Below, one piece after another: positions 434 through 22,007 of a DNA stretch of 32,000 nucleotides. Every line of letters starts with the position of its first letter. The first letter of the stretch is position 1. The notes beneath the pieces are model-generated. The model did not search any database, was not told where the DNA came from, and saw only the letters and a list, made by a program, of their open reading frames with translations. The stretch comes from Schaalia meyeri (GTDB lineage Bacteria > Actinomycetota > Actinomycetes > Actinomycetales > Actinomycetaceae): NCBI RefSeq assembly GCF_900105015.1, contig NZ_FNLK01000012.1, positions 385,749-417,748 on the forward strand. The letters run 5' to 3'. A program made the translations under genes and the position numbers.

Positions 434-2164
434 CTACTGGCGGTCCGATAGCTCCAGGTTCGCACGAACGACGATTCCAATTCGTTCCACCATCGCCTCG
501 TCCACCCACGATCCGTCCAGGTCGGCCAGGCGCGGATGCGCGGGTTCCTCATCGAACAAACGATCAAAACCCAGGATCGCCCGCCACAGGGGGATGAGCT
601 CTTCGTGATAGGTGTGCCCGTGGCCGCCCGGAGCCGTCCCCGCGACCGGCAGATCCGCCAGAACCTGAATGAACGTCACGAAACGCGTGAACTCGACGGT
701 GCGTGACACGTCGCGCCCCGCACGCTCGCGCAACCAATCCGGTTGTGTCCATATCAGCTTCTTGTTCCACCACACGACCGGATCCGAGGGGTGCTGGGCG
801 TACACGAGGCGCGGGAAACCCCACGGCCCCAGCTCGCGGCCGTACAGGTCCGTGCGCAGGTCCGACGGCTCGTTCACGAAGCGCACGCGCCGCGCGTTGT
901 CCACCACGGGCGCCACCTCGGGACTACCCTTGTGCCGCGCGGCCGTCAGCGCCGCGTGCATCGGCGTAAACGCCGGGGTTCCCACCCACAGGGCGCCGTC
1001 GACACTCTCCAGCGCGTCATTTGCGCAGGAAAACACCGACTGCGACGCGAACGCACCGAGGGACTCCCCGCACACGAACAGGGCGGGACGGTCGGCCCGG
1101 TCCATGGAATCCAGCTCGGCGCGAACCGCGCGAAACAGGACCGCCGACGCCTTTTGCGACGGCTCCAATCCCGTCAGCCAATTCAAAGCGGAGGGCACGT
1201 ACGAATACTGCAGCGACGCGGTCGCGCAGTCGCCGCGCGTCAGGAACTCAAGGGGCTGGACCTGCCACTCATCCACCCATCCGGAGCCGGTCGAGGTGGC
1301 CAGCAGGATCACCGCGCGATCGAAGGCCCCGGTGCGGTGCAGCTCCGCCACCACCGTGGACGCGGCCTGCTCGATTCCGGCGCCTCCCGTGGGCATGCCG
1401 GCGTAGACGCGGATGGGTTCTTTCGCCGCTCCCCCACTGACCTGCGCGATGTCCAGGCGCGACGGGCCCCTGCCCAGGAACACGCGCCCCTGACCGCCCA
1501 CCGACTCCCACGTCACGGGCGAGGACGCAGACGCGGAACGCTCTAAGACGAAGGGCCGGTAGATGCCGCGGGCCGTACGCGTGTTCATCTGTTCCGCGTG
1601 GTGGCGAAAGAAACCGATGCCGCCGCGCAGGATCACGTTCGAGGTCAGAAAGAACACGATGACGCACACGATGGCCACGCCCACCACCACGGCCGCCGGC
1701 CTAATCATGTACGCCGCCAGCGCCGCGATCAGCATGCGTCCCACCTGGATGAAAGCCTCCACGATCGCCAGTAAACACCAGGCGACCACGACCGATCCGG
1801 CGGCTCCCAGGAGGTATTCGCCCAGGTTTTCGCCCGGCATGTTCACCAGCTTCGAGGCCTTACGTGCCCTCCGATACGACTGGATCACCGCATACAGCCA
1901 CCACACGGCGAACAGGGCGGCGATTCCCACGCGGAAACCGAGCTCGACGGGCTCGGAGGCGCTGATCGTCAGTCCCGTCACGCGGATGACTCGCGTCCCC
2001 ACGTTCTGGACGATGACGCCGCCCACGTAGCCGCACGTGACCAGGACGCCCGAGGCGATCGCGTGCCACGCCCACGAGCGCGCCATCAGCGAGGGCGCGA
2101 CGCTGACCGCATACATGGCCAGGGCCGCGATCACTCCCAGGAACGACCAACCCATGACGCCCAT
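434..2164 (-). CDS. Membrane-anchored alpha/beta-hydrolase family protein (Abhydrolase_9/DUF2319-like)
   Basis: 576-aa ORF. The N-terminal ~190 aa has several hydrophobic helices. The C-terminal part has the GESLGA nucleophile elbow and the PIRVYAG…TGSGWVD…QYSYVPS pattern typical of this actinobacterial family. Confidence 0.85.
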   Translation of the reverse strand: MGVMGWSFLGVIAALAMYAVSVAPSLMARSWAWHAIASGVLVTCGYVGGVIVQNVGTRVIRVTGLTISASEPVELGFRVGIAALFAVWWLYAVIQSYRRARKASKLVNMPGENLGEYLLGAAGSVVVAWCLLAIVEAFIQVGRMLIAALAAYMIRPAAVVVGVAIVCVIVFFLTSNVILRGGIGFFRHHAEQMNTRTARGIYRPFVLERSASASSPVTWESVGGQGRVFLGRGPSRLDIAQVSGGAAKEPIRVYAGMPTGGAGIEQAASTVVAELHRTGAFDRAVILLATSTGSGWVDEWQVQPLEFLTRGDCATASLQYSYVPSALNWLTGLEPSQKASAVLFRAVRAELDSMDRADRPALFVCGESLGAFASQSVFSCANDALESVDGALWVGTPAFTPMHAALTAARHKGSPEVAPVVDNARRVRFVNEPSDLRTDLYGRELGPWGFPRLVYAQHPSDPVVWWNKKLIWTQPDWLRERAGRDVSRTVEFTRFVTFIQVLADLPVAGTAPGGHGHTYHEELIPLWRAILGFDRLFDEEPAHPRLADLDGSWVDEAMVERIGIVVRANLELSDRQ

Positions 2165-2455
2165 TGTGCCAGGTGAGCGGGGCCTGGTTCAGGAATATAC
2201 GAGGCCGAGGCAGGTTCGATGATCAAGGTTTCACAAATAGGCCTGTCAAAAGTGTCACATCTTATGAAGCGGGCGGTTTGTCCAACCGCGCGGGCGTGCG
2301 AGTCGGTTCCGCTCCAGCGGGCGCGCATCCAAGCGAAACGCTCACTCCCATCCATGCGCCTGGGCGTGAGCAGTGAACTATCGCGAATAGCTCCATTCAT
2401 TGAGCGACCCACCACTTCGCTTGACATGTGTTTGGTCGATTTGTAGGTTGTGCTC

Positions 2456-2866
2456 GTGAGTGGGGATGTTGGCTTTGTTCCAGGGTCGCTGATTGAGGCG
2501 GCTTCGGGTGTTCAGGACGCGTGCGACCCGTTTGTTGAGTCGGTTTCTTCCTTGGGCGATGAGGTTGCTGGCTTGATTCCGGGTGTGAATGGTTCTTACG
2601 TGGAGCCGTTGAGCAGCTCGCTGGAGTTGTGGGGTGAGTCCTTGAAGGTCTTGTTCGATGATCTGGGCCGTTTGGTTGAGGCGCTGGTGGGGGTTGAGAA
2701 CTCGTTCGGAGCGTGTGAGAGTGAGATTGTTGCTTCGCTCATTCAGGCTGCCTCTGGTTATGGCGGGGATGGCGGGGATTCGTCGGGGGTAAATCCATTC
2801 GCTTCGGAGTTGGGTGGTGCCGGTGCTTCTGCTGGCAGGGGTGCTTCTGGTGCCTCGTCGGGGTGA
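2456..2866 (+). CDS. Small helical protein with a Gly/Ser/Ala-rich tail, first gene of the toxin operon (putative T7SS accessory/partner protein)
   Basis: ORF 2450-2866. The GTG at 2456 has better spacing from the AGG at 2445-2447. Same strand and tightly packed with the next three genes, with predicted helical composition. No family recognised by eye. Confidence 0.55.
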   Translation: MSGDVGFVPGSLIEAASGVQDACDPFVESVSSLGDEVAGLIPGVNGSYVEPLSSSLELWGESLKVLFDDLGRLVEALVGVENSFGACESEIVASLIQAASGYGGDGGDSSGVNPFASELGGAGASAGRGASGASSG

Positions 2867-2900
2867 GAGCCGTTTGAGAAGGTCTTGGGGGGGGAACGCT

Positions 2901-3200
2901 GTGAGTGGTGATTCGATGTTGGTGTTTCGTGAGGCGGACGCATCGGCGATGAGCGAGGTGTTCGCGAAGAAGGCGGCGTTAATGCGTGAGTTTGTGCCGG
3001 ATGTGCGCGATGGGGTCGTGAGTTCGGTGGGTGATTGGACTGGCGAAGCGCGTACTGCTTGTGATGCCGCGTTGGAGCGTTTGGTGGGGCGCGGGGAGGA
3101 GCTGGCCGATTTGTTACAGTCGGCTTCTGGCGCGATGGACGAGATCCGAGAAGCGGGCATTCATGCTGAGGCGATGGCGTTCGCGCATATCGATGGCTAA
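2901..3200 (+). CDS. WXG100-like small secreted/partner protein
   Basis: About 99 aa from GTG 2901, preceded by a G-rich RBS at 2887-2896. It has a central W-x-G motif (GDWTGEAR) between two helical halves, which is the size and architecture of Esx/WXG100 proteins. Confidence 0.7.
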   Translation: MSGDSMLVFREADASAMSEVFAKKAALMREFVPDVRDGVVSSVGDWTGEARTACDAALERLVGRGEELADLLQSASGAMDEIREAGIHAEAMAFAHIDG

Positions 3201-3212
3201 GGGAGCGAAGTG

Positions 3213-3551
3213 ATGAGCGATTTTGAGGTTGATCTGCAGGCGATGTCGTCTCTGGTGTCGTCGTTGTCTTCGTTTGAGGAGGCTGCCAAAGAGTATGACG
3301 TGGAGGATTGGGTCCCCAATTCGGGAATGCTCGACAATCCGGACGTGTGGAGTGTGACAAATTCGTTCCAGGACACTTGGGAGAAGGGCCTGAACGATTT
3401 GCGTTCGGATATTTCGGCCGCCAGCAGCGCCCTGGGTGGGGCGTTGGGCGCGTATGGGGAATATATGGAAAAGTCCAGCGAACTCATGCAGACAGTCGCC
3501 CAGGCTGCGTCTGACCTGGAGCAGTCTCCCGTTGTTGGTTCGGGGGCGTGA
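3213..3551 (+). CDS. Small helical protein (~112 aa), putative T7SS toxin partner
   Basis: ATG 3213 lies 7 nt after AAGGGAG. Helical, acidic, with a Ser/Ala-rich C-terminal half. It ends 6 nt before the toxin start. Confidence 0.6.
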   Translation: MSDFEVDLQAMSSLVSSLSSFEEAAKEYDVEDWVPNSGMLDNPDVWSVTNSFQDTWEKGLNDLRSDISAASSALGGALGAYGEYMEKSSELMQTVAQAASDLEQSPVVGSGA

Positions 3552-3557
3552 TTTGCT

Positions 3558-6500
3558 GTGGGCGTGAACGCTCAGGGTGCTCCTGTTTTCACGATTGGCG
3601 GCGATCCGGGTGGGATTCGCACGCGCGCCCAGGTGATGGCGGATCGGGCGGCGGAGTTCGCTGACGTGTATTCGGGCCTCACATCCCTGAAGTCTGACGG
3701 GTGGAAGGGGCGCGCGGCGGATCGTTTCCGTGAAAAGTTTAAGGTTCAGACCCAGGGGTGGATGGACGCGCAGACCGCGTTTTCGAGTGCCTCTGCGGCT
3801 TACCTGTCCTACGCCACCACGTTGGAGAACGCACAGAACCAGTTGCCCGGTATCCGGTCGCGGTGGGAGCAGGGCCGCGCCGCGGTCGAAGCGGCGCAGG
3901 CCAATCAGGACAGCGTTCGCAGCCAGGCCGCGTCCGCTGGCGTGCCCGCGGTGTTTGATTCTTCGTGTGACGAGGGGCCGGGCGAGGACGCCATGGCCGC
4001 AGCGCAGACGGATTTCAACACGCTGGTCGCCACTGTCAACGATGCGGGGAATCAACTGATCTCGGCGCTCAACGCGGGGATCGCGATGCTCCCCGAACGC
4101 ACATGGTGGGACGCTACCTGCCGCACGGTCGGCTCTGTGCTGGTTGGCTTCGTGGAAGCCGTCGCTGACTTGTTGAAGCTGGCATGCAAGCTTGGCGGTT
4201 TCGATACCGTATTTGATTTTGGGCGCATGCTGATGGGGGACATGTCTTGGGATGAGTACATGGCTAAGCACGCGTATCTTCCCACCGAAACCGTCACAGG
4301 TTTGGCCAAAGCGTTATGGCAGGACCCCATTGGTTTCATGAAGGGGCTTGGTAAGGCAGTTTTAGACTGGGATGCGTGGGCCGATGACCCTGGTCGAGCG
4401 ATCGGACACCTGCTCCCCGACGTGATCATCGCGGTAGCAACGGCAGGTACAGGCACAGGGGCATCCGCGGGCGAGAAAGCCGCATCAGGAGCGGCCCGCG
4501 CGGCTCGCGCGGCCCGCATCGGCCGCGAGGTTTTCAAAGCGATCCTGCCGGTCAACCCCGACGATATTCGCGCGGTATCTAAACTCGGTAAAAACCTGGT
4601 CGAAAAGCTCTCGAACCGCGGCATCAACACCACGGGCAGCGTCGCGCAGCTATGCAACGATGCAAAGAAGATGACGAGCGCCTTGAACATAGACCACGCG
4701 GCGGTCGGGACAAACAAGTTCGCGGGGGCATCCAACCTCACCGGGGACGCATCCCACGCTGGCCGGGGGGCTGACAATCTCGCGGGAGCCTACAACCTTG
4801 CGGGAGACACTTCACACGCAGGCCGGGGCACCAACAACCTCGCCAGTGCCTCCAACCTCGTCGGGGATACCACCCACGGTTCGAGCAACCTCTCCGGGGC
4901 CTCCAACCTCACCGGGGACGCCGCTCACGCAGGCAGGGGCACCAATGGCTTTAATGGGTCCTCCAACCTCGTCGGGGATGTCGCTCACGCTGGCCGGGGG
5001 ACTAGTGGTTCTTCGGGTGTCGCCGACACGGCCACGATGGCCGAGGCGTCGCGTGGTTCGCACGCGAATGGTTACGCTCATGCGCAAGTCGGCGGCGGCT
5101 CCTACGGTGGTGATACCGGCGTTCACGGTGCTTCATCCACCCACGCGCAGGGAGCCCACCACCCCGATGGCGGGATGCCCGCGAGGGATGTGCACGCCGG
5201 ATCACGCTCAGACTCCGCCGCCGGTTACAGCGACTCCCACCCGACGGCTTCCCACGACATCCAGAGTGCCCCCCGGGGTGCCTCCCACGACCCGTCCCAG
5301 GGCGGCTCCCGGGGTGCCTCCCGTGATGTGTCCAGCTCGGGCGGTCACGGCAATCAGCCGCAGAACTCCCACGCCGCACAGGGCGGGAACGCCTCTGGCG
5401 CAGAGCGGGGCTCGTCATCGAATGGTTCGTCTTCGAGTCAAGGACACCACGGATCCGGTCAGGGTACCCAGGGCGGCCCACAGCCCACCAACCCCGCAGC
5501 CCCCAAGCACCCCACAGGTGGGGACGCCGCTGCCCCGCAGCGCTCCCAGGCTGCGGTGAGCGGCGAGGCCCCGCGCGGCAGCGAGGCGGCCACGCCCAGC
5601 CAGGCCTCGCCCAAGCCCGCTGCAAAAACTCACGCGCCCGACGCTGACGCTCCACACGCTAAGGGGGACGCGTCCAAGCCTGCCCCCCAGGCGGAGCCAT
5701 CCAAGCCCGCACCCGACACCGACCGTGCTCACGCCAAGACCCACGAGCCCAGGTCCGCGCATCCCACCCAGGACTCCCCCACCAAGACCCGCGAGCCTGC
5801 GGGAAAGGGCGAGGTGAATGAAACACCCGTCGCGGCCGACAAGCCGACGACGGAGCACCACGCCGGAAACAAGCCTGGCTCGCACGCGGGCGAGAAGCGC
5901 TCGGGGCACGCAGCCGACACGGACAATAAAAACGCAAACAACTCGGCACACAAGCAAGAACCCGAGACCAACTCCGAGGCCAACCCTGGCGAACAAGCGC
6001 ACGAGGACGCCGCGAAGTCCAACAACACCAAGCAGACCACGCGCGACGACCCGACAGCTGACAAGCACGCCCCCAACGAGAAGGCAGAGGACCCCGCAGA
6101 CACCAAGACCCACGGCGATAAGGACGAGACAAGCACGCCCCCGGCGAAGGACAACGCGCACGATGCCAGGTCCGAGGCGGATAGCAGGCCCACCAAGAGC
6201 AGTGAGCCCGAGCCTGCGGAAAAGGGCGAGGTGAATGAAACACCCGCCACGGCCGACAAGCCGACAGACAAGACCCCCGCTGAGAACACCACGGCCGATA
6301 GGACAGACAAACACGCTTCCACCAGGCAGGCTAACGACGCAGCGGACGCGAAGCAACACGCCGACAAGGACGAGAAAACCAAGCCCGCCACGAAAGACAA
6401 CACGCACGAGGCATCGCCCGAAGCGGACAGCAAGCGTGCAGACGACTCGGCACACAAGCAAGAACCCGAGACCAACTCCGAGGCCAACCCTGGCGAACAA

Positions 6501-8039
6501 GCGCACGAGGACGCCGCGAAGTCCAACAACACCAAGCAGACCACGCGCGACGACCCGACAGCTGACAAGCACGCCCCCAACGAGAAGGGCGAAGAACCCG
6601 CAGACACCAAGACCCACGGCGATAAGGATGAGGCAGACAAGCAAGCCTCAGAAGATGGCACGCTCGACAAGAAGGATGCGGACACCACACGCCACGACGG
6701 CGATAACCTCGCCAAGGATCACGGCAGCGATCCCGACAAGGACAGCAGCCACCCCAAGGAAACCAACGACAAGTCCAACCGCCCCAACGATGGCGACACC
6801 TCGCAACCCGATGGCAAGGATCATCCGAAGACCAAGGAAACCCAGAAGGACAACTCCGCAACCAACACCAAGGACACTGACAACTCGAAGCACTCCAAGG
6901 AAGAGAACACACCCAAGCACGACAAGGATGCAGACCAACAGAAGGGTACCGACTCAACAGCAGACAAGCACGCCCGCAACGGACGGTCCGACGACGCCGC
7001 GGATCCAAAGCCACACCGTGACAAGGAAAAGGAAGAGGCAGGTTCATCTACCAAAGACCCCGACAGCGAGCATCCCGATGATTCTTCTCGAAAGAACAGC
7101 GCGTCCGAGTCCGCTGACGGCGACTCCAGCGATTCATCGCGCGATGAGCGCGGCACGGAGCACGGAGATCGTGACGCCGACGGCGATTCGGGCGAGCACG
7201 AAAGCTCCACGAGTGAAGGAGGCCAAGAGAGAAAGGAGTACGAGGATCTGCACGATCACTCGCACGATGGCCAGGCAGATCCCTCCTACGACCCCAGCGC
7301 TGATCCTCACACCAACTATGACGCGGATTACGACACCCCACCAGACCCATCCGTCGACCAGACCATCGGCTTCCCCGAGGGAGTCGACCCGTACACCACG
7401 CCACCCCGGACGCGCCGCCAGCTTCAGGAGGCACTGGAAGCCTGGCCAAACTACAGAAGAAAAGATCTCCCTCCAGACGCAAAGGACTGGCACACGGGCA
7501 GGTTCGGCTTCGACGACATGGTCAATCCCGAGCGCGCCCTGGGCTTCAATCCCGACGGATCTCCACGATCAATGAAGGACTTCATGGACACCTTCTTCGA
7601 CGAGAAGAAAGGCACTATGTGGCCATCCGATGTCCCCGGACAACGAAAGAGCGGCGCGCTCCTCAATGAGGACTACCATGAGTACGCCTCCATTCAACCT
7701 TTCATTGACGAGCACGGATCAGACCTGTGTCGAATCGGAGATCCCGAAGGTAAGTTCGCGGCCGCAATGCACAAGGACGGCTCCGTCCCATCGTTTGGCG
7801 AACGAGGATTGTTCCAGCCCTTCTCCCTGGGCGCACCGGATATGCGCGCACGCCTGACCGGATACCTTCCCGAGGGACACACCGTCAAATACGGCCAGGT
7901 CGCCCCCGCATTTGGCCAACCCGGAGGAGCAATACAGCTGCAGATTTGGGGACCCGAGGAAACAACAGGTAAAATGATAGAATTACCGTTAGAAACATGG
8001 AAGAAACGAGGAATCATTGAGTATGTCCAACACGATTAG
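3558..8039 (+). CDS. T7SS-type polymorphic toxin: WXG-like N-terminal secretion domain, hydrophobic/helical region, ~800-aa disordered linker and C-terminal TNT NAD+ glycohydrolase domain
   Basis: 1493-aa ORF. The N-terminus (GGDPGGIRTRA…DGWKGRAADRFREKF…YATTLENAQ) resembles the helical-hairpin secretion domain of actinobacterial polymorphic toxins. The C-terminus (LCRIGDPEGKF…FGERGL…VAPAFGQPGGAIQLQIW) carries the TNT signature FGQPGG.Q. Confidence 0.9.
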   Translation: MGVNAQGAPVFTIGGDPGGIRTRAQVMADRAAEFADVYSGLTSLKSDGWKGRAADRFREKFKVQTQGWMDAQTAFSSASAAYLSYATTLENAQNQLPGIRSRWEQGRAAVEAAQANQDSVRSQAASAGVPAVFDSSCDEGPGEDAMAAAQTDFNTLVATVNDAGNQLISALNAGIAMLPERTWWDATCRTVGSVLVGFVEAVADLLKLACKLGGFDTVFDFGRMLMGDMSWDEYMAKHAYLPTETVTGLAKALWQDPIGFMKGLGKAVLDWDAWADDPGRAIGHLLPDVIIAVATAGTGTGASAGEKAASGAARAARAARIGREVFKAILPVNPDDIRAVSKLGKNLVEKLSNRGINTTGSVAQLCNDAKKMTSALNIDHAAVGTNKFAGASNLTGDASHAGRGADNLAGAYNLAGDTSHAGRGTNNLASASNLVGDTTHGSSNLSGASNLTGDAAHAGRGTNGFNGSSNLVGDVAHAGRGTSGSSGVADTATMAEASRGSHANGYAHAQVGGGSYGGDTGVHGASSTHAQGAHHPDGGMPARDVHAGSRSDSAAGYSDSHPTASHDIQSAPRGASHDPSQGGSRGASRDVSSSGGHGNQPQNSHAAQGGNASGAERGSSSNGSSSSQGHHGSGQGTQGGPQPTNPAAPKHPTGGDAAAPQRSQAAVSGEAPRGSEAATPSQASPKPAAKTHAPDADAPHAKGDASKPAPQAEPSKPAPDTDRAHAKTHEPRSAHPTQDSPTKTREPAGKGEVNETPVAADKPTTEHHAGNKPGSHAGEKRSGHAADTDNKNANNSAHKQEPETNSEANPGEQAHEDAAKSNNTKQTTRDDPTADKHAPNEKAEDPADTKTHGDKDETSTPPAKDNAHDARSEADSRPTKSSEPEPAEKGEVNETPATADKPTDKTPAENTTADRTDKHASTRQANDAADAKQHADKDEKTKPATKDNTHEASPEADSKRADDSAHKQEPETNSEANPGEQAHEDAAKSNNTKQTTRDDPTADKHAPNEKGEEPADTKTHGDKDEADKQASEDGTLDKKDADTTRHDGDNLAKDHGSDPDKDSSHPKETNDKSNRPNDGDTSQPDGKDHPKTKETQKDNSATNTKDTDNSKHSKEENTPKHDKDADQQKGTDSTADKHARNGRSDDAADPKPHRDKEKEEAGSSTKDPDSEHPDDSSRKNSASESADGDSSDSSRDERGTEHGDRDADGDSGEHESSTSEGGQERKEYEDLHDHSHDGQADPSYDPSADPHTNYDADYDTPPDPSVDQTIGFPEGVDPYTTPPRTRRQLQEALEAWPNYRRKDLPPDAKDWHTGRFGFDDMVNPERALGFNPDGSPRSMKDFMDTFFDEKKGTMWPSDVPGQRKSGALLNEDYHEYASIQPFIDEHGSDLCRIGDPEGKFAAAMHKDGSVPSFGERGLFQPFSLGAPDMRARLTGYLPEGHTVKYGQVAPAFGQPGGAIQLQIWGPEETTGKMIELPLETWKKRGIIEYVQHD
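4713..5015 (+). repeat. Five tandem ~20-aa (≈60-nt) coding repeats, consensus NL.GASNL.GD.SHAGRGT.
   Basis: Read from the translation: ASNLTGDASHAGRGADNLAGAYNLAGDTSHAGRGTNNLASASNLVGDTTHGSSNLSGASNLTGDAAHAGRGTNGFNGSSNLVGDVAHAGRGTS. Confidence 0.8.
5941..6126 (+). repeat. Copy 1 of a ~186-bp near-identical in-frame direct repeat inside the toxin linker
   Basis: Encodes NSAHKQEPETNSEANPGEQAHEDAAKSNNTKQTTRDDPTADKHAPNEK.EDPADTKTHGDKDE. The second copy lies 504 nt downstream. Confidence 0.85.
6445..6630 (+). repeat. Copy 2 of the ~186-bp linker repeat
   Basis: Same sequence as 5941-6126 with a few substitutions. A second repeated motif, GEVNETP..ADKPT, occurs at 5811 and 6228 (offset 417 nt). Confidence 0.85.
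7724..8036 (+). other. TNT (NADase) catalytic core of the large toxin
   Basis: DLCRIGDPEGKFAAAMHKDGSVPSFGERGLFQPFSLGAPDMRARL…KYGQVAPAFGQPGGAIQLQIWG. The pattern matches the TNT family known from M. tuberculosis CpnT. Confidence 0.8.
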
Positions 8040-8568
8040 CGAAGATGAGTTCATCAGGACCCTCGTCCCCTTGCTTGACCGAGAAATTTACGTTGTCAGC
8101 GAGGACCACGTCAAGTTTCAGAGCAACGATCTCAATGTCATGATCCACACGTGGTACGAGGACGGTTTCTACTTCGGGGGCTCAAGCGAACGCCTCTCCC
8201 CCCCCGGCAGCTATCTGCGAGCGAACTCTCTTACCCCCGTGAAGCAGTGGCTAGCCATGCGCAACTTTGACCTACTGCGCTATTGCCTCGGCCTCGAGTA
8301 CTTTGACATCAGGTTTCGGGAGCTGCTGATCGCGCCGCACTGGTCCCACAGACGCGGCACTACCGACTATTCCGTTGAGCTGTGCCACAACGATCAACCC
8401 ACCGGCATCATCGTTGGCAAATCCTCCGACGAAGCCACCAACCTGACCTGGTTCCTCAACCACACACCCGAACGCCTCCTCGAAATCGCACACATCGAGG
8501 ACGTTGAGGAGGCCTGCCAGGCCCTCTTCGGAACCACACACATCCCATTCGGTGAGGACGACGACTGA
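8023..8568 (+). CDS. Putative TNT immunity protein, paralog 1 (181 aa)
   Basis: ATG 8023 lies inside the last 17 nt of the toxin ORF. The N-terminus MSNTISEDEFIRTL is shared by three paralogs in the window. Its position corresponds to the IFT immunity gene next to CpnT. Function is inferred from context only. Confidence 0.75.
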   Translation: MSNTISEDEFIRTLVPLLDREIYVVSEDHVKFQSNDLNVMIHTWYEDGFYFGGSSERLSPPGSYLRANSLTPVKQWLAMRNFDLLRYCLGLEYFDIRFRELLIAPHWSHRRGTTDYSVELCHNDQPTGIIVGKSSDEATNLTWFLNHTPERLLEIAHIEDVEEACQALFGTTHIPFGEDDD

Positions 8569-8613
8569 CACGCGCAGACCTACCACCCATTCAAGAAACA
8601 CAGTGAACCACCA

Positions 8614-8643
8614 GGGACTATTCAATATGTCCAACACGATTAG
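8614..8643 (+). pseudogene. Relic of a TNT toxin 3' end (…GTIQYVQHD*) fused upstream of and overlapping immunity paralog 2
   Basis: gggactattcaatatgtccaacacgattag matches the last codons of the toxins ending at 8039 and 13025 (GIIEYVQHD*, GIIQYVQHD*). Confidence 0.7.
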
Positions 8644-9190
8644 CGAAGATGAGTTCATCCGGACTCTCGTCGCCCCGCTTCATCGAGACGTCACGGTAGT
8701 TAGCGAGGAGCACGTGTGGTTTCGGAGCAACGATCTCAATGTCATGATCCACGCGTGGCGCAAAGGTAACTCCTACTTGGGCGGGTCAAGCGAACGCCTC
8801 TCTCCCCCCCCCCCCGGCACCTTCGTATGGTCTCATTCTCTTACCCCGGTGAAGCAGTGGCTCGTCATGTACAACTTTGACCTACTGCGAGCTTACCTCG
8901 ACCTCAAACCATTTGACATCAGTTTTCGAGAACTGCTGATCGCGCCGAACTGGTCCCACCGACCCGGCCCCAATCAGTACTCCCTCGAACTGTGCCACAA
9001 CGATCAGCCCACCGGCGTCTTTGCAGGCAAATGGTCCGACGAAGCCACCAACCTGACCTGGTTCCTCAACCACACACCCGAGCACCTCCTCGAAATCGCA
9101 CACATCGAGGACGTTGAGGAGGCCTGCCAGGCCCTCTTCGGAACCCCACACATCCCATTCGCGCCACATAAACGACCGACGCACGCGTAG
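8627..9190 (+). CDS. Putative TNT immunity protein, paralog 2 (187 aa)
   Basis: Begins MSNTISEDEFIRTL and is collinear with paralog 1. It contains a C12 tract (8804-8815) encoding SPPPPG. It is preceded by a remnant of a toxin 3' end. Confidence 0.75.
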   Translation: MSNTISEDEFIRTLVAPLHRDVTVVSEEHVWFRSNDLNVMIHAWRKGNSYLGGSSERLSPPPPGTFVWSHSLTPVKQWLVMYNFDLLRAYLDLKPFDISFRELLIAPNWSHRPGPNQYSLELCHNDQPTGVFAGKWSDEATNLTWFLNHTPEHLLEIAHIEDVEEACQALFGTPHIPFAPHKRPTHA

Positions 9191-9279
9191 GAGAAAGACA
9201 TGCTACGGGAAGAGTTTCTAGACATCACCAAGAGTCTATTAACAGAGCACAATATGAGTGCGGTATAGACGAGCAGGAG

Positions 9280-9612
9280 TTGAGACTTAGTATTCCCTCC
9301 GGCCCTTCAACTTTCTGCACACGCAGCAGTAAGGCTCCTTCCTCGTCGGCGCAGCCCGTTGCCTGTTACACCGCAGATGACACACCCGACAAGAAGGAAG
9401 CGAACGCCACCCGCCACGACGGTGATAACCACGCCAAGGAGCACGGCAGCAACCCCGACAAGGACAGCGACCGCCCCAAGGACACCGACGGCGACGGCAA
9501 CTCCGACAAGGATTCGGTCGAACGTAAGGATGCTGACCCCAAGGCGGAGGACTACTCCGCCAATGGCAAGGCCGATGACGCCGACGCGCACAAGACCACC
9601 GAAGACGCCCCG
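9280..9612 (+). pseudogene. Linker-like 5' portion of an orphan toxin cassette (frame 1), separated from the ART domain by a 1-nt frameshift
   Basis: Encodes …DDTPDKKEANATRHDGDNHAKEHGSNPDKDSDRPKD…. Nucleotides 9388-9482 match toxin linker 6665-6759 at 83/95 positions by hand alignment. The frame then shifts at the C4 run at 9608-9611. Confidence 0.65.
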
Positions 9613-9821
9613 AGGCCAAGGCCGACGACGCCGATACTAAGTCCGCTGCTTCAGACGGACATGGTTCGGGCGATGGCCACGGTGATGGGGAGCGCCCCCT
9701 CACCAAGGAGGAAATTGAAGCGCTCCCGCAAGCTCCTGGGCGCAGAGCGAGCGCGGAAGAGCTCGACGCGTGGCTGGACGCATGCATCGAGCAGAATCCG
9801 GATCTGACGCGTCAAGAGCTA

Positions 9822-10286
9822 ATGGCTGCCTACGACTACTCAGGTCCGCAATATAAGGAGATCAACGGCTGGCTTCGTGACCCATCAATGGCTGTCTCGG
9901 CCGATATCCCCGAGACAGTTGAGACCCTCAATAAATTCCTCGACAGGTTGCCACCACATAACGGCAGAGTATACCGAGGAACGAAGGTGCCTGGACACAT
10001 TCTCGACGAGGCACTCCGTACCGGTGTCTACCGCGACCCTGCATTCTTCTCAAGCAGCACAAAGCCCGGCGTTGCAGAGAAGTTCATGAATTCAGGCGCA
10101 CTCGACCCCGGAGACAGACGAGTCCTGTTCGAGATTGAAAGCGCTTCGGGTTCAAACATCCGCCCAATGTCTATGTTTGCCACACAAGACGAAATCCTTT
10201 TTAAATCCGGACTTGAGTTTAAGATTGAAAAATGGACGGAACATGCAGACGGAAGTTACACCATCAAACTAAGGCAGAGAGAGTAG
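9822..10286 (+). CDS. ADP-ribosyltransferase toxin domain (C3/VIP2-like R-S-E ART), orphan C-terminal module
   Basis: Motifs seen: YDYSGPQYKEINGWLR, RVYRGT (Arg), FFSSST (S-x-S) and ATQDEILFKSG (Q-x-E). The frame is open upstream to 9579, but the first start codon is ATG 9822. Confidence 0.8.
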   Translation: MAAYDYSGPQYKEINGWLRDPSMAVSADIPETVETLNKFLDRLPPHNGRVYRGTKVPGHILDEALRTGVYRDPAFFSSSTKPGVAEKFMNSGALDPGDRRVLFEIESASGSNIRPMSMFATQDEILFKSGLEFKIEKWTEHADGSYTIKLRQRE

Positions 10287-10295
10287 GATGCAGTT

Positions 10296-11183
10296 ATGCC
10301 CATCGCTGTGAATGGAAACGTTAACAGAGCGCAGTTGTGGCTTGCCGACCACCACTGGTGGGATTACCCAGAGATCTGGAAGCTCCCTAAGCGGCCCGAG
10401 GACGGCCAGCTCGACTGGGAGCGCCTCTTTCCACACCAGCGTGACGTCATCCGCCGTTTCTCAGCCACGCTCCGCACATTATCGGGCTTACCTGCGGTGT
10501 TGCCTTCGATCCCCTACCAGCCTTTCGGGACCCCGAGCCCGCAGGGCTGGGTCATGCCTATCAGATCCGGCACACGCGGTGAGCTTCGTTACGGCGAGTG
10601 CAGCTTTGAGGGCTCTATTCTCTCCCATCACCCCATCCGAGGGACCGACACGTTCGCGCTCCTCATCTATCCAGGCCGGATCAATCCCTGGTTTGTCATC
10701 CGCGCAGACGGACACCCCTGGCACACCAATCCATGGGCAAACAACACGCGAGTGGGGTCCATCTGGGTGCGCACTCTTGCCTGGCAGCACACCTCTCATC
10801 AGATTCTGCCATTCACCGAGGTAGCCGTTCCGCCGCGGACTGTGACTACGCAGCTGCGCACGATCTACATGGAGCGGAACCCCGACGATCCTGACCTGTA
10901 CGGCTCGCTCACAGAGCTACCGACACCGGTGGACGAACGCATCGAGGTTCGAGATGTCCCCGTGTGGTGGAAAGAACCAGAGTACCTCCTGTGGAAGCGC
11001 TTCCTTCAGCCCGAACCGGGAAATCCGGACTCCTATTGGAACGGTCCCAACACTCTCGACGAGCGCACCGCTTACGAGTGCATCATCCAATACGCAGGCC
11101 TGCTCCGCGATTGGACATCGCCTTACGTCCCCTCGCCCGACTTCATTGAACGCTTTGACTGGAAACCACGGGAGGAATCATGA
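10296..11183 (+). CDS. Hypothetical Trp-rich 295-aa protein, candidate immunity protein for the ART module
   Basis: ATG lies 6 nt after AGGA and 9 nt after the ART stop. No recognisable family. Function is inferred from position only. Confidence 0.6.
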   Translation: MPIAVNGNVNRAQLWLADHHWWDYPEIWKLPKRPEDGQLDWERLFPHQRDVIRRFSATLRTLSGLPAVLPSIPYQPFGTPSPQGWVMPIRSGTRGELRYGECSFEGSILSHHPIRGTDTFALLIYPGRINPWFVIRADGHPWHTNPWANNTRVGSIWVRTLAWQHTSHQILPFTEVAVPPRTVTTQLRTIYMERNPDDPDLYGSLTELPTPVDERIEVRDVPVWWKEPEYLLWKRFLQPEPGNPDSYWNGPNTLDERTAYECIIQYAGLLRDWTSPYVPSPDFIERFDWKPREES

Positions 11184-11683
11184 ACGAAGATAGCATCAAG
11201 AGTTTTTTAGCTCTTCTCGAGTCACTGCCGCCGACCCCCTCGGTTACCTTCCGCGGATATGTCGACACTTCCATCACGGAGCCGCGTGCGATCTCATCTC
11301 CCATTCTCACGGCAACATCGCATAGCATTTCCATTGCGACAAACAACCTGGAGATTCCGCAGATCGCTATTTTTATCGGCCAGAATGGACGAGACCTAAG
11401 CAACCTCATGATGGGTGCTCCCTCTTTCAATCTCGAAGAGGTCACCTACATGCCCGGATCCTACTTCTACCAGCATCCAGCACAGGAGTTCCTCGGAGTG
11501 ACAATCCAGCTTTACGAGGAAATGCGCCTGACCGAAGGAGGAAAGAGCCTCACCCCTACCCGTGTACTCGACTCCTGGACACCCATTCTCATTGAGTTTG
11601 AGCCTGCGCTCCGCGCTGCTCGTAGCCAGCGCGTCGAACTACCCGAAGGGGCATCAGAACGTTTTCTCATTCCCGTGGGGTAA
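11180..11683 (+). CDS. 167-aa protein with a divergent ART-like fold signature (possible second, N-terminally short ART module)
   Basis: ATGA overlap with the upstream stop, and a GGAGGA RBS. LESLPPTPSVTFRGY aligns with LDRLPPHNGRVYRGT of the neighbouring ART, ILTATSHS with FFSSSTK, and NLEEVTYMPGS with TQDEILFKSG. Confidence 0.55.
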   Translation: MNEDSIKSFLALLESLPPTPSVTFRGYVDTSITEPRAISSPILTATSHSISIATNNLEIPQIAIFIGQNGRDLSNLMMGAPSFNLEEVTYMPGSYFYQHPAQEFLGVTIQLYEEMRLTEGGKSLTPTRVLDSWTPILIEFEPALRAARSQRVELPEGASERFLIPVG

Positions 11684-12022
11684 CGTTTCAACACGAAGGG
11701 AAGCAGCGCTGACGGACCACTAGCTGTTCGACGAACGATGTCATCATCGACTATCTCACCCGACGATCGGCCAAACGGAACGTCACGCTGCACGCCCCTG
11801 CTGGTCGCCACGGCAGCCAGCCAGAGCACACACAGCTCGTAACAGCTGGCTGCACTCGCTCCTTCGGGGCACATCTCGAGCACGCGCCGCACACACCGAA
11901 CACCACGCATTCCCGACGGTACGGACCTGCACGCACCGGGTGTCCAACGAGAGAGGCATTCAAGTACAGGACGACGCTCCATACTGAAGACACCGGCATG
12001 TCAACCACGGGAGGATGTGATC

Positions 12023-12663
12023 ATGGACGTACTTGAGCAGCTGATCGAACGGGCGAAAAGCTTCGGCGTCTCTGCCGACCTCATCGGCGACAACGACTGC
12101 GTCTTCGGATACGAGGCGTCAATGAGTCAGCACTTTTGGATTGACGATCGGCAGTATCACTTCGGCTCCGACGAGAGAGCAACCACCTACTCCTCGCGCA
12201 TGTGGACGTCTTAGCCTCAACCCTCTCCCTGGAGGATATCGTCGCACCTACTCCTCGCGCATGTGGACGTCTTAGCCTCAACCCTCTCCCTGGAGGATAT
12301 CGTCGCACCTACTCCTCGCGCATGTGGACGTCTTCTCCTGACATCGCACCCCTGGCTCTCATCGACCTTGTTGGCTCCCTCTACCGAATGGCTGCAGGTT
12401 ACCGACGGAGCGACATGGACTACGGGTGGCGCTCCTTCCCCGTTGGCTGGACGATCCAACGAGTGGCGGGATACTCCTCTATGCGCATCGCTTCCGAGAG
12501 CCGGCCCGAGTTGAGCTACGACACCAACGAAATCCATCAGTACTTGCATATCCGCTCGCTCACCATCTATCCGGTTAAGACAGTGCTCGACATGTTCTTC
12601 GACCCCGAAGCGCCCCCTCTCGGCACTCGGGCTTACATTCACAACTTCTATGATCGTGTCTAG
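12023..12663 (+). pseudogene. ORF split by a 61-bp tandem repeat; would be ~172-174 codons if the two extra units were removed
   Basis: The 5' part (MDVLEQ…DERATTYSSRMWTS*) stops inside repeat unit 1. The same peptide, …TYSSRMWTS-SPDIAPL…, resumes in the frame shifted by 122 nt. A W..D..Y.FG..ER motif loosely resembles the immunity paralogs. Confidence 0.6.
12184..12334. repeat. 61-bp tandem repeat, 2 full units plus a 29-bp partial unit
   Basis: Units start at 12184, 12245 and 12306 and are identical by eye: cacctactcctcgcgcatgtggacgtcttagcctcaaccctctccctggaggatatcgtcg. Confidence 0.9.
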
Positions 12664-13025
12664 TGAGCGAAGACTGGTATCGGCATGTCGTTCGAGATGG
12701 TCACTCCACTGATTTATGCAGACTCAAAGATCCCGGTGGAAAGTTCGCTGCAGCAATGCACAAAGATGGAACACCGTCCTCTTTTGGCGAACGGGGATTG
12801 CATCCCTTCTCCCTAGGGGCACCAGATATGCGTGCACGCCTAACAGGCAAACTTCCTGATGGTTGCATTGTTAAATATGGTGAAGTAGCTCCAGCATTTG
12901 GCCGGCCCGGTGCTGCTATACAGCTACAGATTTGGGGACCCGACAAAATGACGGGTATACTCAGAGAGTTGACACTGAGAGAGTGGGAAAAGCGGGGAAT
13001 CATTCAATATGTCCAACACGATTAG
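12663..13025 (+). CDS. Orphan TNT (NADase) core module, 120 aa, lacking any N-terminal secretion domain
   Basis: GTG 12663 overlaps the upstream TAG. Collinear with the last ~120 aa of the large toxin (DLCRLKDPGGKFAAAMHKDG…VAPAFGRPGAAIQLQIWG…GIIQYVQHD*). Lower GC codons than the main copy. Confidence 0.75.
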   Translation: MSEDWYRHVVRDGHSTDLCRLKDPGGKFAAAMHKDGTPSSFGERGLHPFSLGAPDMRARLTGKLPDGCIVKYGEVAPAFGRPGAAIQLQIWGPDKMTGILRELTLREWEKRGIIQYVQHD

Positions 13026-13554
13026 CGAAGATGAGTTCATCCGCACTCTCGTCCCCTTGCTTGACCGAAAGATTTACGTTGTCAGCGAGGACCACGTCAA
13101 GTTTCAGAGCAACGATCTCAATGTCATGATCCACGTCTGGTACGAGGACGGTTTCTACTTCGGGGGCTCAAGCGAACGCCTCTCGCCTCCCAGCACCTAC
13201 CTGCGTGCAGATTCTTTAACCCCGGTGAAGCAGTGGCTCGTCATGGACAACTTTGACCTACTGCGATATTGCCTTGATCTCAAACCATTTGGCATCAGTT
13301 TTCGAGAACTGCTGATTGCACCACACTGGTCCCACAGACCCGGCACTACCATCTATTCCGTTGAGCTGTGCCACAACGATCAGCCCACCGGCGTCTTCAC
13401 AGGCAAGTGGTCCGACGTTGCCACCAAGCTGACCTGGTTTCTGAACCACACGCCCGAACGCCTCCTCGAAATCGCACACATCGAGGACGTCAAGGAGGCC
13501 TGCCAAGCCCTCTTCGGAACCACACACATCCCCTACAGCAAAAACTACGACTGA
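13009..13554 (+). CDS. Putative TNT immunity protein, paralog 3 (181 aa)
   Basis: ATG lies inside the last 17 nt of the orphan TNT ORF. It shares the MSNTISEDEFIRTL N-terminus and is collinear with paralogs 1 and 2. Confidence 0.8.
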   Translation: MSNTISEDEFIRTLVPLLDRKIYVVSEDHVKFQSNDLNVMIHVWYEDGFYFGGSSERLSPPSTYLRADSLTPVKQWLVMDNFDLLRYCLDLKPFGISFRELLIAPHWSHRPGTTIYSVELCHNDQPTGVFTGKWSDVATKLTWFLNHTPERLLEIAHIEDVKEACQALFGTTHIPYSKNYD

Positions 13555-13604: not shown

Positions 13605-14412
13605 TTAGGGCGTTTCTTTTCGTGGTGCTGTGTGTTGGTTTTCTGCTTGTTGTGGTGTGATGCCGCCTATTGCGAGGGGGAGGCGGTAGGTGTGGTACCA
13701 GTGGACCCAGGCTGAGGTTTCGCGTTCAACTTTCACGTTGGTCGTGCCAGGGACCGGCGTAGCGGGGGCGCGCCTTGTTGTGGATAAGTTCAGCTTTGTA
13801 CACGGAGTTCAATGCTTCAGCTAGGGCATTGTCGTAGGAGTCGTCCCTGGAGCTCGCCGAGTCTGCCGCCTTGCGCTGGGCTAGTGCTTGCCCGTAGCGC
13901 ACGTCGTCGATATTGGACACCCTGGTCGGAATGGTGCACGAGCCCGCTGGTGTCCATGCCCTCGCGGCAGCGCTGGTAGATCGCCATGTTCAAGGTATCC
14001 AGGGCCAGGTCGGCACGCAGCGAGAAAGAGACCTTCCACCCCAGGATTTTGCGCGAGTACACGTCGGTGACGAAGGAGACGTAGACCCAGCCGACCCGGT
14101 TGGCACGTAGGTAATGTCCGCGCCCCACAACTCGTTGAGATCATGGGCAGCGAAACGACGATTCACCAGGTCTGCTGGGCATGCCCGCCTCGGTGCCGGG
14201 GCCGTGACATGGCGGGCCCGGCACCGGCTCACACCGCGAATTCCCATACGCCGCATCAGCCGCTCAACCGTGCACCGCGCGACATGCCCCACGCCGGTAT
14301 CTGGTCGGTTAGGAAAGCATGCATTTGACGCAAGATACTCCCCACCATACCCGGGACACTTCAACACCCAAGTGAAACCCACACCGCCCCTGCTCGGGTA
14401 TAACTCCCACAA
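13605..14412 (-). pseudogene. IS3-family transposase OrfB (DDE integrase core), broken by several frameshifts; OrfA not seen
   Basis: Fragments lie in three frames: …VARCTVERLMRRMGIRG…ADLVNRRF…LWGADITYVPT, then …GWVYVSFVTDVYSRKILGWKVS…HHSDQGVQY, then …DSYDNALAEALNSVYKAELIH, then …ERETSAWVHWYHTYRLPLAIGGITPQQAE*. Confidence 0.8.
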
Positions 14413-14652
14413 TCGGGGGTTTTTCGGACCGCCGGGGCGACTCCGGTTTCAATCCGGAGAGTCGCATCAAGGTTATGGGGCGGGCTTGTACGCTGACGGG
14501 ACTGCCCACGTCCGCCTGAGCGGGTTAGCGCGCGCCTTACCGTGTTCACGCGCACCCCAGCGGATGCGGGTTAAGCGCAATCACCTAACAACAGGCTGTC
14601 TAGCCCGCGCAAGCCACCAGGGCGAGAACGCGCAGCACACGCGAGCCCCGCA

Positions 14653-14771
14653 CCTGGATAGGAAACAGCCTCCTGGATAGGAAACGGCCACCTGGATAGG
14701 AAACGGCCACCTGGATAGGTTAATAACCTATCCACGAGCGCATAACCTATCCAGCAACACACTTCCTATCC
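14653..14771. repeat. Array of seven GGATAGG/CCTATCC sites at strict 19-bp spacing (4 direct, 3 inverted), symmetric about GGATAGGTTAATAACCTATCC
   Basis: CCTGGATAGG starts at 14653, 14672, 14691 and 14710. CCTATCC starts at 14727, 14746 and 14765. Confidence 0.85.
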
Positions 14772-15506: not shown

Positions 15507-16942
15507 GGCTCTTCATAATTGAGGGTGTGGGGGTGGTATGCGGGGTTCGGTGTGTCGTGGCCGGGTAGGGGTCGAGGTCTTCCGATGATGGGGGTTCCTA
15601 CACCGTCCATCCGAAAGACCTCGACATGTCCAATGCTACCTTTGGTCGCCCTGACCTGAGCGCCTTCACGGGCCTGGATGACCTAGGACTGGAAGTGATG
15701 GGTCAGCGTGTAGGAGGCGATCGGACCGTCTTGGCCTGCAAGGTAGTGGGTGAGGATCGGTGGTGCCGACAGTGTGGGGGCGAGGGCGTCGTACGCGACA
15801 CGGTGATCAGGCGCTTGGCTCACGTACCCTACGGGTGGCACCCCACCATGTTGCACGTGAGCGTGCGCCGCTACCGCTGCCAGACGTGTGCTCACGTGTG
15901 GCGTCAAAACATGAGTGCAGCAGCCGATCCGCGCGCGAAGCTCTCGCGCGCAGCGGTGCGCTGGGCGCTGGTGGGCCTGGTGGTCCACCATCTGACGGTG
16001 GCGCGCATCGCCGACGTATTGGCCGTGTCATGGAACACTGCCAATACCGCGATCTTAGGTGAAGGCCAGCGCATACTCATCGATGATCCTGATCGTTTCG
16101 AGGGAGTGTGCGTCATCGGTGTTGATGAGCACGTGTGGCGCCACACCCCTTACGGCGACAAATACGTCACCGTCATCTTGGACTTGACTCCTATACGAGA
16201 CCGTCGTGGTCCCTCCCGGCTCCTGGATATGGTCCCAGGCCGCTCCAAGCAGGTCTTCAAAACCTGGCTCTCTTCCCAGCCCGACACGTGGCGCGAGAAC
16301 ATCGAGGTCGTAGCGATGGATGGATTCACCGGGTTCAAAAGCGCAGCCGCTGAAGAACTCTCAGACGCAACCGCGGTCATGGACCCCTTCCACGTCGTAC
16401 ACCTTGCCGGTGATGCTCTCGATGAGTGTCGCAGGCGCATCCAGCAAGAACTCCACCACCGGCGTGGGCGTGCCACCGATCCCCTGTACAAGGCCCGCAG
16501 AATGTTACACACCAGATCCTGCCTGCTCACCCCGCGCCAACAACACCGGATCCTCGACCTGTTCGCCAGCGATTGCCACGTCGCCCTCGAAGTCACCTGG
16601 AGCGTCTACCAGAGTATTATCGACGCCTACCGCGATCCCAATAAAATCCGCGGTAAGGCCCTGATGCAAGCCGAAATAGACCGTCTCAGCAACGCGGGTG
16701 TCCCTCGCTCCCTCACGGAGATCATCACACTGGGAAGAACGCTCAAACGCCGATCCCGGGACATCCTGGCTTACTTCGATCATCCACACACCAGCAACGG
16801 TCCTACCGAAGCGATCAACGGACGTCTCGAACACCTACGCGGATCCGCACTCGGGTTCCGAAACCTCACCAACTACATCACCCGCTGCCTCCTCGAAACA
16901 GGAGGATTCAGACCCCAACTACACCCTCAATTATGAAGAGCC
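15507..16942 (+). mobile_element. Intact ISL3-family insertion sequence (1436 bp)
   Basis: Perfect terminal inverted repeats GGCTCTTCATAATTGAGGGTGT (15507-15528 and 16921-16942). 8-bp target-site duplication CCTAACGG (15499-15506 and 16943-16950). Single transposase ORF. Confidence 0.92.
15626..16936 (+). CDS. ISL3-family transposase (436 aa)
   Basis: N-terminal Cys-rich zinc-finger region (CRQCG…CQTCAH) followed by a DDE domain (GVDEH…AMDGF…NGPTEAINGRLEHLR), typical of ISL3/IS204/IS1001-type enzymes. Confidence 0.95.
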   Translation: MSNATFGRPDLSAFTGLDDLGLEVMGQRVGGDRTVLACKVVGEDRWCRQCGGEGVVRDTVIRRLAHVPYGWHPTMLHVSVRRYRCQTCAHVWRQNMSAAADPRAKLSRAAVRWALVGLVVHHLTVARIADVLAVSWNTANTAILGEGQRILIDDPDRFEGVCVIGVDEHVWRHTPYGDKYVTVILDLTPIRDRRGPSRLLDMVPGRSKQVFKTWLSSQPDTWRENIEVVAMDGFTGFKSAAAEELSDATAVMDPFHVVHLAGDALDECRRRIQQELHHRRGRATDPLYKARRMLHTRSCLLTPRQQHRILDLFASDCHVALEVTWSVYQSIIDAYRDPNKIRGKALMQAEIDRLSNAGVPRSLTEIITLGRTLKRRSRDILAYFDHPHTSNGPTEAINGRLEHLRGSALGFRNLTNYITRCLLETGGFRPQLHPQL

Positions 16943-21011: not shown

Positions 21012-21076
21012 GCGGCCATATTAGCACGGGTAATAACCATATATTGCGTATGACGGAGACCACTCACCGTCAGCCA

Positions 21077-21100
21077 ATTTAGATCTATATTTAGATCTAT
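21077..21100. promoter_or_regulatory. Tandem 12-bp repeat ATTTAGATCTAT x2, each holding the 8-bp palindrome TAGATCTA; candidate operator in the R-M divergent promoter
   Basis: Read directly. It ends 11 nt before the methyltransferase ATG. Each unit contains an AGATCT (BglII-type) site. Confidence 0.6.
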
Positions 21101-21111
21101 TTGGTACTAAA

Positions 21112-21972: not shown

Positions 21973-22007
21973 CGCAGACGATCCGAAAGCCGTGCTCACG
22001 GCCCAAC

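Follow-up and report, generated by a model that had tools for sequence, protein, structure and literature searches.

We analysed a 32,000-nt stretch of DNA from Schaalia meyeri (hereafter, the window), in which positions 2456-13554 hold what we read as a polymorphic toxin locus of an Actinomyces/Schaalia-like bacterium that depends on an Esx-type secretion system (type VII secretion system, T7SS). We put the probability of this reading at about 0.8. An earlier note on the same DNA had described an operon of five open reading frames (ORFs) on the forward strand at 2456-8568, and all five were present at these positions. They encode a small helical partner that is weakly EsxA-like (s1, 2456-2866, 136 aa), a second small helical partner that carries a W-T-G motif and is weakly EsxB-like (s2, 2901-3200, 99 aa), a universal partner located directly 5' of the toxin (s3, 3213-3551, 112 aa), the polymorphic toxin itself, a single ORF with a PF21725 domain at the N-terminus and a TNT domain at the C-terminus (3558-8039, 1493 aa), and a protein with a predicted IFT-type immunity fold, whose gene overlaps that of the toxin by 17 nt (imm1, 8023-8568, 181 aa). 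The peptide strings quoted in the earlier note (DGWKGRAADRFREKF, YATTLENAQ, VAPAFGQPGGAIQLQ and GDWTGEAR) were all found in the translations. The end that it had set for the locus, at 8568, did not hold, as an array of orphan toxin and immunity genes runs on to ~13554.

Gene boundaries were refined from homologue lengths, ribosome-binding sites and start codons. The GTG at 2901, which follows a GGGGGGGG run (a G-rich ribosome-binding site), was preferred as the start of s2, whose homologues are 99-101 aa long; a start at 2814 is unlikely, and s2 therefore does not overlap s1. The ATG of imm1 is located 17 nt inside the toxin gene and is preceded by ACGAGGAA. Intergenic gaps are short (34, 12 and 6 nt for s1-s2, s2-s3 and s3-toxin, respectively) and, together with the toxin/imm1 overlap, fit a single operon in which toxin and immunity are translationally coupled. 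The possibility that the toxin ORF is an artefact or a chance ORF was rejected on the basis of its 4.5-kb continuous frame with a significant domain at each end, its uniform G+C content at third codon positions (GC3; 0.73, 0.75 and 0.65 in the three parts of the gene) and the presence of relatives that reach 1278-2033 aa. Promoter and terminator scans were uninformative: the former gave a single promoter-like site, which lay on the wrong strand, and the latter gave terminator-like matches mostly within the repetitive linker of the toxin gene. A megablast search of 2000-9500 against plasmids gave no match.

The toxin begins with a helical T7SS-signal domain (residues 13-180, positions 3594-4097, forward strand) that contains the motif W49-K-G51. 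It was matched by Pfam PF21725 (T7SS_signal, "putative T7SS secretion signal domain") with 73.5 bits and an E value of 3.3e-20, the cut-off being 27 bits, which bears out the N-terminal WXG-type secretion domain proposed in the earlier note. The family of this toxin head comprised 692 cluster representatives at E<=1e-3 and 200 at E<=1e-10, and its best genome matches were in S. odontolytica and Actinomyces spp. (about 64%). Across 18 diverse head homologues, G48 and W49 were invariant and G51 was nearly so. An AlphaFold2 model of the head, built with 18 homologues, had a mean pLDDT (predicted local distance difference test) score of 60 and contained a block of three long helices (residues 11-180, pLDDT about 65-92), in which W49-K-G51 formed the turn between helices 17-42 and 52-127. 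When this model was compared with the PDB by Foldseek, the best matches were all PPE proteins of mycobacterial ESX systems, at a non-significant E value of about 0.1; a PPE-like fold of the head is suggestive only. Beyond the Pfam match, we identified a second conserved module of ~120 residues (residues 183-300, 4104-4457, forward strand; DWDxWADDPxRAIGHLxPD...ATAGTG), which was recognized from its conserved columns, many of which were invariant over the same 18 homologues, and which was helical, with low confidence, in the AlphaFold2 model.

Head and payload are separated by a low-complexity spacer of 867 aa, presumed to be disordered (residues ~396-1262, 4743-7343, forward strand). Only 3.9% of its residues are hydrophobic, and A, D, S, G, T, P, K and H are abundant. 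Its GC3 of 0.75 is similar to that of the flanking domains, and it contains internal repeats of 60 nt (20 aa) and about 500 nt (~170 aa). Toxins of close Actinomycetaceae relatives were 1278-2033 aa long, compared with a median length of 556 aa for the remaining clades. In several relatives (L001, L005 and L012), the toxin gene was split within the low-complexity linker, so that head and payload are encoded by separate ORFs, for example 494 aa plus 547 aa with an ADPrib_exo_Tox domain, or 335 aa plus 380 aa with a GH-E domain. Either these splits are frameshift errors that arose in repetitive, GC-rich sequence, or the genes are genuinely decaying or phase-variable.

The C-terminus of the toxin (residues ~1321-1493, 7518-8036, forward strand) was assigned to the TNT-type NAD+ glycohydrolases by phmmer and by the annotation of its homologues. 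It matched the solved TNT domain of Mycobacterium tuberculosis CpnT (4QLP_B) over about 156 residues (E 2.6e-13, 53.6 bits), and payload homologues at 68-87% identity are annotated with PF14021, in one source as "glycohydrolase toxin TNT-related". The TNT claim of the earlier note was upheld by these two lines of evidence, whereas the direct Pfam TNT (PF14021) score of 21.9 bits stayed under the cut-off of 27; a sister variant, the toxin P0185 from another sample, scored 27.3 on the same model. We further placed the phmmer alignment to 4QLP_B onto a mutational study of TNT (PMC6398120), in which F727, D756 and R757 (DRxG), Y765, R780 (QRxL), H783 and Q822 were reported to be important as catalytic or NAD-binding residues; mutation of R757 or R780 abolished activity and mutation of Q822 was reported to reduce it. 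The equivalents of R757, R780 and Q822 are conserved in the toxin. Judged from its sequence, the domain is likely to be an active NADase.

The protein encoded by imm1 had 108 homologues, none of which had a Pfam domain and which, where named, came from Schaalia, Actinomyces or metagenome-assembled genomes. Searches of imm1 against Pfam and NCBIfam gave no match, nor did searches against the PDB with either the single sequence or a 39-sequence profile; thus, no sequence similarity to Rv3902c/IFT, the factor that neutralizes TNT, was detected. Its AlphaFold2 model was of high confidence (pLDDT 93.6, predicted template modelling score 0.90), and Foldseek matched this model to Rv3902c (4o6g) with an E value of 3.2e-8 and template modelling (TM) scores of 0.70/0.72 over 169 of 174 columns. 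The second match was IFT in the TNT-IFT complex (4qlp_A, E 2.2e-7). These two were the only significant matches (the next had an E value of 0.34), and TM scores over both IFT structures were 0.66-0.72, at an identity of 15% in the structural alignment. On this model, imm1 is a structural homologue of IFT, and the suggestion that the gene overlapping the toxin encodes IFT-type immunity was confirmed at the level of the predicted fold. Adjacency to a TNT gene is seen twice in the locus: imm1 overlaps the toxin by 17 nt, and its downstream paralogue imm3 (see below) overlaps an orphan TNT gene likewise. A TNT payload with an IFT-fold neighbour would make this toxin and its antidote a TNT/IFT pair, whose immunity side has diverged past detection by sequence. 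TNT/IFT pairing would then reach well beyond mycobacteria and, on the immunity side, be visible through structure only. The IFT-fold immunity family, as found here, is annotated in none of the libraries searched.

Conservation of the small partners was surveyed in 86 fetched loci that encode relatives of the toxin head and range from Actinomycetaceae to Nocardioides. In 82 of them, BLASTP detected an s3 homologue as the gene directly 5' of the toxin, and profile hidden Markov models (HMMs) found s1 in 79 and s2 in 80. In Actinomycetaceae and Propionibacteriaceae, s1 and s2 are co-directional with the toxin. In Nocardioides and other organisms outside Actinomycetaceae (L013-L086, e.g., L035 8930-9546), s1/s2 homologues were observed on the opposite strand, as a divergent pair immediately 5' of s3-toxin. 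The idea that the third small gene is an unrelated insertion was rejected, as this gene is conserved family-wide. The same conservation indicates that the s1-s2-s3 triad is ancestral to the system rather than a local peculiarity; the triad is kept in about 80 of the 86 loci, in agreement with the earlier proposal that the three small genes are partners of the toxin.

Similarity of the three proteins to known Esx proteins was weak, and distributed unevenly over their families. The s1 profile matched ESAT-6 (3fav_B) near full length with an E value of 0.07, and 2 of 12 members of the s1 family had a Pfam WXG100 match (best E 1.3e-5). The s2 profile matched EsxB/CFP-10, also near full length, with an E value of 0.12; s2 itself scored 17.0 bits on WXG100 (PF06013, E 0.007, cut-off 27.3) and 24.6 bits on TIGR03930 (E 2e-5, cut-off 44.85). 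Neither s1 nor s3 itself matched PF06013 or TIGR03930. Within the s3 family, weak WXG100 matches were found in 28 of 40 members and EspC matches in 10; W56, E57 and Y81 were invariant and G59 was nearly so, giving a conserved W-E-x-G motif, and Y-x-x-x-D/E was present in 26 of the 40.

Downstream of imm1, we identified an array of further immunity genes and orphan toxin cassettes, all on the forward strand. It begins with imm2 (8627-9190), a tandem paralogue with 75% amino acid identity to imm1, which is followed by an orphan ADP-ribosyltransferase (ART) cassette (9280-10286). This cassette consists of a linker remnant, a frameshift, a pre-toxin region and an ART domain (ART and ADPrib_exo_Tox matches), and has no secretion head. 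Its segment 9375-9513 has 81% nucleotide identity to the toxin linker at 6653-6791, the frames being different, and in relatives the ART domain sits on full-length PF21725 toxins. Two genes without a Pfam match come next, p295 (10296-11183) and p167 (11180-11683), whose homologues are adjacent to each other and downstream of toxins in L016, L017 and L032. Homologues of p167 were found in 17 loci, and because they directly follow ART-bearing toxins in L001, L012 and L014, p167 is probably the ART immunity protein. The gene pAB (12017-12663) is a diverged, IFT-like immunity gene that matched the imm1 family HMM weakly but in register (13.9 bits) and has a homologue 3' of a TNT-variant toxin in L007. 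It is broken: a perfect 61-nt tandem unit, present in about 2.5-3 copies (the third copy 66%) at 12184-12366, shifts its frame, and deletion of two copies restores a 174-aa ORF. This repeat could be a real pseudogenization, a slippage-prone site or an assembly error. The array closes with an orphan, 5'-truncated TNT module (12663-13025) that comprises the C-terminal 120 aa, with 66% identity to the toxin C-terminus and a Pfam TNT score of 27.2 bits, and with imm3 (13009-13554), a third imm1 paralogue (86% amino acid identity) that overlaps it. The downstream toxin cassettes lack heads and promoters, and share linker or 3' homology with the main toxin gene.

Polymorphic toxin systems are defined by variable C-terminal ends (Zhang et al. 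2012, PMC3482391), and several observations revealed such variation here. Homologous heads carry GH-E nuclease, ART, PF15644 or TNT payloads. The toxin P0185 (1428 aa) has a near-identical head and linker up to residue ~1138 (nt ~6972), with one 33-residue gap; beyond this point similarity is weak, and the protein ends in a different TNT variant. The switch site is located in the third copy of the TADKH-encoding linker repeat (family D5, 6950-7036, forward strand). In S. odontolytica UMB0018 (L007), the window-type TNT is a downstream orphan, and the main toxin, of 2033 aa, has a TNT-like variant at its end and is followed by a pAB homologue. Other close relatives, of 1278-1572 aa, have ART or unassigned C-terminal ends. 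The C-terminus has thus been swapped between near-identical strains. With a breakpoint in the repetitive linker and orphan cassettes that have linker homology, payload replacement is caught directly. In relatives, the variable block lies between the same flanks, Abhydrolase_9 on one side and a methyltransferase, a PLD-like gene and an ABC/CbiQ transporter on the other, and this slot is occupied by different payloads, a GH-E nuclease with Imm33 among them. The flanking genes have about 80-83% DNA identity to uncultured Actinomyces/Schaalia contigs.

A candidate secretion route for such a toxin is known from S. odontolytica, which has a functional, eccC-dependent Esx system (September 2026 preprint, PMC13622651), and the same work predicts distally encoded Esx substrates that adjoin WXG100-like genes; before it, according to its own statement, there was no experimentally identified Esx effector in Actinomycetaceae. 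The ESX-4 dependence of mycobacterial EatA with TapA1/TapA2 (PMC13444075), the Esx secretion of the TNT-like LXG toxin TelB (PMC5555719) and an eccC about 2 kb from a family member in Aeromicrobium (L043) also speak for such a route. Export of the toxin by a T7SS is a well-founded inference and not a demonstration. Two complexes would be expected from the analogy with PE/PPE, EsxA/B, Lap and Tap partners. One would be a helical bundle of the PE/PPE type, built from s3 and the toxin head and competent for secretion, the export signal being shared between the WXG part contributed by the toxin and the Y-x-x-x-D/E part contributed by s3. The other would be a dimer of s1 and s2 resembling EsxA/EsxB, which either is secreted along with the toxin or serves as a targeting factor. 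The complex would leave through an Esx apparatus that is driven by EccC and whose genes lie in another part of the genome; within the cytoplasm of a neighbour, the TNT domain would hydrolyse NAD+ and perhaps also NADP+. In the producer, imm1, translationally coupled to the toxin, would block the TNT active site, and imm2, imm3 and pAB may guard against TNT variants of kin. The orphan cassettes could serve as a reservoir for payload replacement by recombination in the repetitive linker. On this reading, the locus is a candidate antibacterial Esx toxin for Actinomycetaceae, with predicted NADase enzymology and antidote.

A bolder version, which we consider unlikely, is that the triad is a distinct T7SSa toxin-export module made of three components (a pair like EsxA/B, an adaptor like PE and a toxin head like PPE), which in oral Actinomycetaceae is mounted on disordered tethers of 0.9-1.5 kaa (thousand amino acids) that reach neighbours, possibly Saccharibacteria, and in which s1-s2 might form a membrane conduit, as EsxE-EsxF do for CpnT. 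If true, the disordered tethers would let the NADase reach neighbouring cells.

A related explanation concerns the target. S. odontolytica's Esx system restricts Saccharibacteria strain TM7-008, infection by the epibiont induces several predicted Esx-substrate clusters outside the esx locus, including a 14-gene cluster, and a long disordered region is likewise present in AesB, the effector already known (PMC13622651). The toxin may be aimed at parasitic Saccharibacteria (TM7) epibionts of oral Schaalia/Actinomyces, or be part of an epibiont-induced Esx response, rather than act on free-living competitors. We regard this as improbable: arrays of immunity paralogues and strain-to-strain payload swaps are a signature of competition between kin or near-kin, no link is established between the locus and the infection-induced clusters, and the effector of that work is not of this toxin family as far as its text shows. 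Competition with other bacteria through an Esx-exported NADase remains our preferred reading of the locus.

Several observations weigh against this Esx-dependent reading. With regard to export, no T7SS core component was found among the ORFs of the window, just as the earlier note had reported; the only ORFs of at least 800 aa are the toxin and an ABC-transporter fusion, the latter in two inverted copies. When the 86 related loci were screened for ORFs of at least 800 aa with at least two Walker A motifs, an EccC-like ORF was found within 10 kb in only one of them, Aeromicrobium L043, in which a protein with three FtsK_SpoIIIE stretches is encoded about 2 kb from the family member. At 1 of 86, linkage to the machinery is not a trait of the family. 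None of s1, s2 and s3 scored above the curated WXG100 cut-off, the s3 of the window lacks a strict Y-x-x-x-D/E (it has Y-x-x-x-x-E), and the PPE fold matches of the toxin head reached only the E value of about 0.1 given above. As for the payload, besides the direct Pfam score below cut-off, the equivalents of D756, Y765 and H783 of TNT are replaced by C, F and F, respectively, and the position of F727 is uncertain, being aligned to V with a W four residues upstream.

Taken to their limit, the same observations would point to a TNT domain that is dead or has another activity, as suggested by the three substitutions and the Pfam score, and/or to an exit route other than a T7SS, such as lysis or a dedicated pore of the small proteins, as suggested by the absence of machinery nearby and by the pores that EsxE and EsxF of the cpnT operon form (PMC7810871). 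We find this still less probable, since the equivalents of R757, R780 and Q822 are retained, the three intact copies of a conserved, closely coupled immunity gene of IFT fold argue for an active toxin, and the PF21725 match and the WXG motif are strong. Least probable is a host-directed toxin, in which the NADase would kill eukaryotic cells as CpnT/TNT does and the immunity gene would only shield the producer: TNT is indeed the part of CpnT that kills macrophages, and IFT protects the producer from it (PMC6398120, PMC8593097), and the organism is probably human-associated, but self-protection leaves the extra immunity paralogues, orphan cassettes and payload replacement unexplained, and family members in soil Nocardioides share the architecture.

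Compared with known systems, the putative Esx-dependent toxin locus described here belongs with the WXG-headed actinobacterial polymorphic toxins (Zhang et al. 2012, PMC3482391; PF21725). It is a member by the Pfam criterion, and shares with them variable C-terminal toxins, immunity genes and standalone cassettes. Both PMC3482391 and PF21725 are computational predictions only, and the triad, the second module and the IFT-fold family are not annotated in the libraries searched. In the esxF-esxE-cpnT-ift locus of M. tuberculosis (4QLP, 4O6G), WXG100 genes likewise precede a toxin with a C-terminal TNT domain, which is followed by an immunity gene of IFT fold. The present locus differs in having three small genes instead of two, an imm1 without detectable sequence similarity to IFT, and a polymorphic payload with an orphan array; its role is likely interbacterial, in contrast to the anti-macrophage role of CpnT.

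Another comparison involves the mycobacterial toxin EatA, which with its partners TapA1 and TapA2 and its inhibitor EatI mediates ESX-4-dependent interbacterial toxicity (Benedict et al. 2026, PMC13444075). With this characterization, the statement of the earlier note that the small-partner arrangement is poorly characterized for actinobacterial toxins is outdated. The order of small helical partners, a toxin with an elongated N-terminal helical domain and a downstream immunity gene is common to EatA loci and the locus described here. In the same study, Eat-like loci were surveyed across Actinomycetota, and TNT was among the commonest payloads; the loci of the survey were described with one or two partner genes, compared with three here; typical toxins of the survey were 400-1000 aa long, whereas this one has 1493 aa with an 867-aa spacer. 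Our locus has a PF21725 head, and further differs from EatA loci in its monoderm Actinomycetaceae host, which is without a mycolic outer membrane, and in its predicted immunity protein, which is cytoplasmic and IFT-like rather than a lipoprotein.

Similar features are present in the LXG toxins and Lap partners of the Firmicutes T7SSb (PMC5555719; PMC10801868), including a helical head, small helical targeting factors, a spacer, a TNT-like NADase and adjacent immunity. One example is TelB (TelB/TipB) of Streptococcus intermedius, a TNT-like LXG toxin that is Esx-dependent and antibacterial and acts in contact-dependent antagonism (PMC5555719). However, the Pfam scan of the full toxin listed only T7SS_signal, TNT and WXG100 and no LXG domain, the head being of the WXG/PF21725 type; the host is actinobacterial, with a T7SSa-type apparatus expected; and the spacers of TelA/TelB, of roughly 150 residues and more, are far shorter than the one found here. 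The locus works like an LXG system and is not a member of the LXG family. In all, it represents, in well-preserved form, a type of system that had been described before, and the general picture of polymorphic toxin systems is unchanged. Its distinctive points are the conserved partner triad, a disordered spacer whose great length is typical of the Actinomycetaceae clade and an immunity family of IFT fold that lacks annotation, and its value is that of a well-annotated example and a source of testable constructs.

Additional features were observed around the locus. Its conserved left neighbour is an Abhydrolase_9 protein of 576 aa (434-2164, reverse strand), with about 80-83% DNA identity in L003, L005, L008 and L009; in relatives, large subtilisin-like surface proteins are located beyond it. 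At the distal end of the variable region are remnants of an IS3-family transposase (13726-14412, reverse strand), consisting of frameshifted rve and HTH_21 fragments, and further on an ISL3 transposase that is intact (15626-16936), with 3.6 copies of a 19-nt unit in tandem (14651-14719) between the two.

The right part of the window forms a near-perfect palindrome that extends to its end, with 100% complementary arms at 20818-25280/27538-32000 and 25313-26028/26790-27505. Its centre, near 26409, is located inside an amino-acid permease gene, and a methyltransferase of the MT-A70 type, the ABC/CbiQ fusion and the permease are duplicated by it. Each arm can be aligned with the syntenic contig L005 as far as the centre, where the available L005 sequence stops. 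A fold-back assembly artefact is the likeliest explanation of the palindrome (20818-32000). A BglII-like restriction endonuclease (20253-21011, reverse strand) and the MT-A70 methyltransferase, which has a helix-turn-helix domain (21112-21972, forward strand), form a divergent restriction-modification pair that is absent at the same position in L005.

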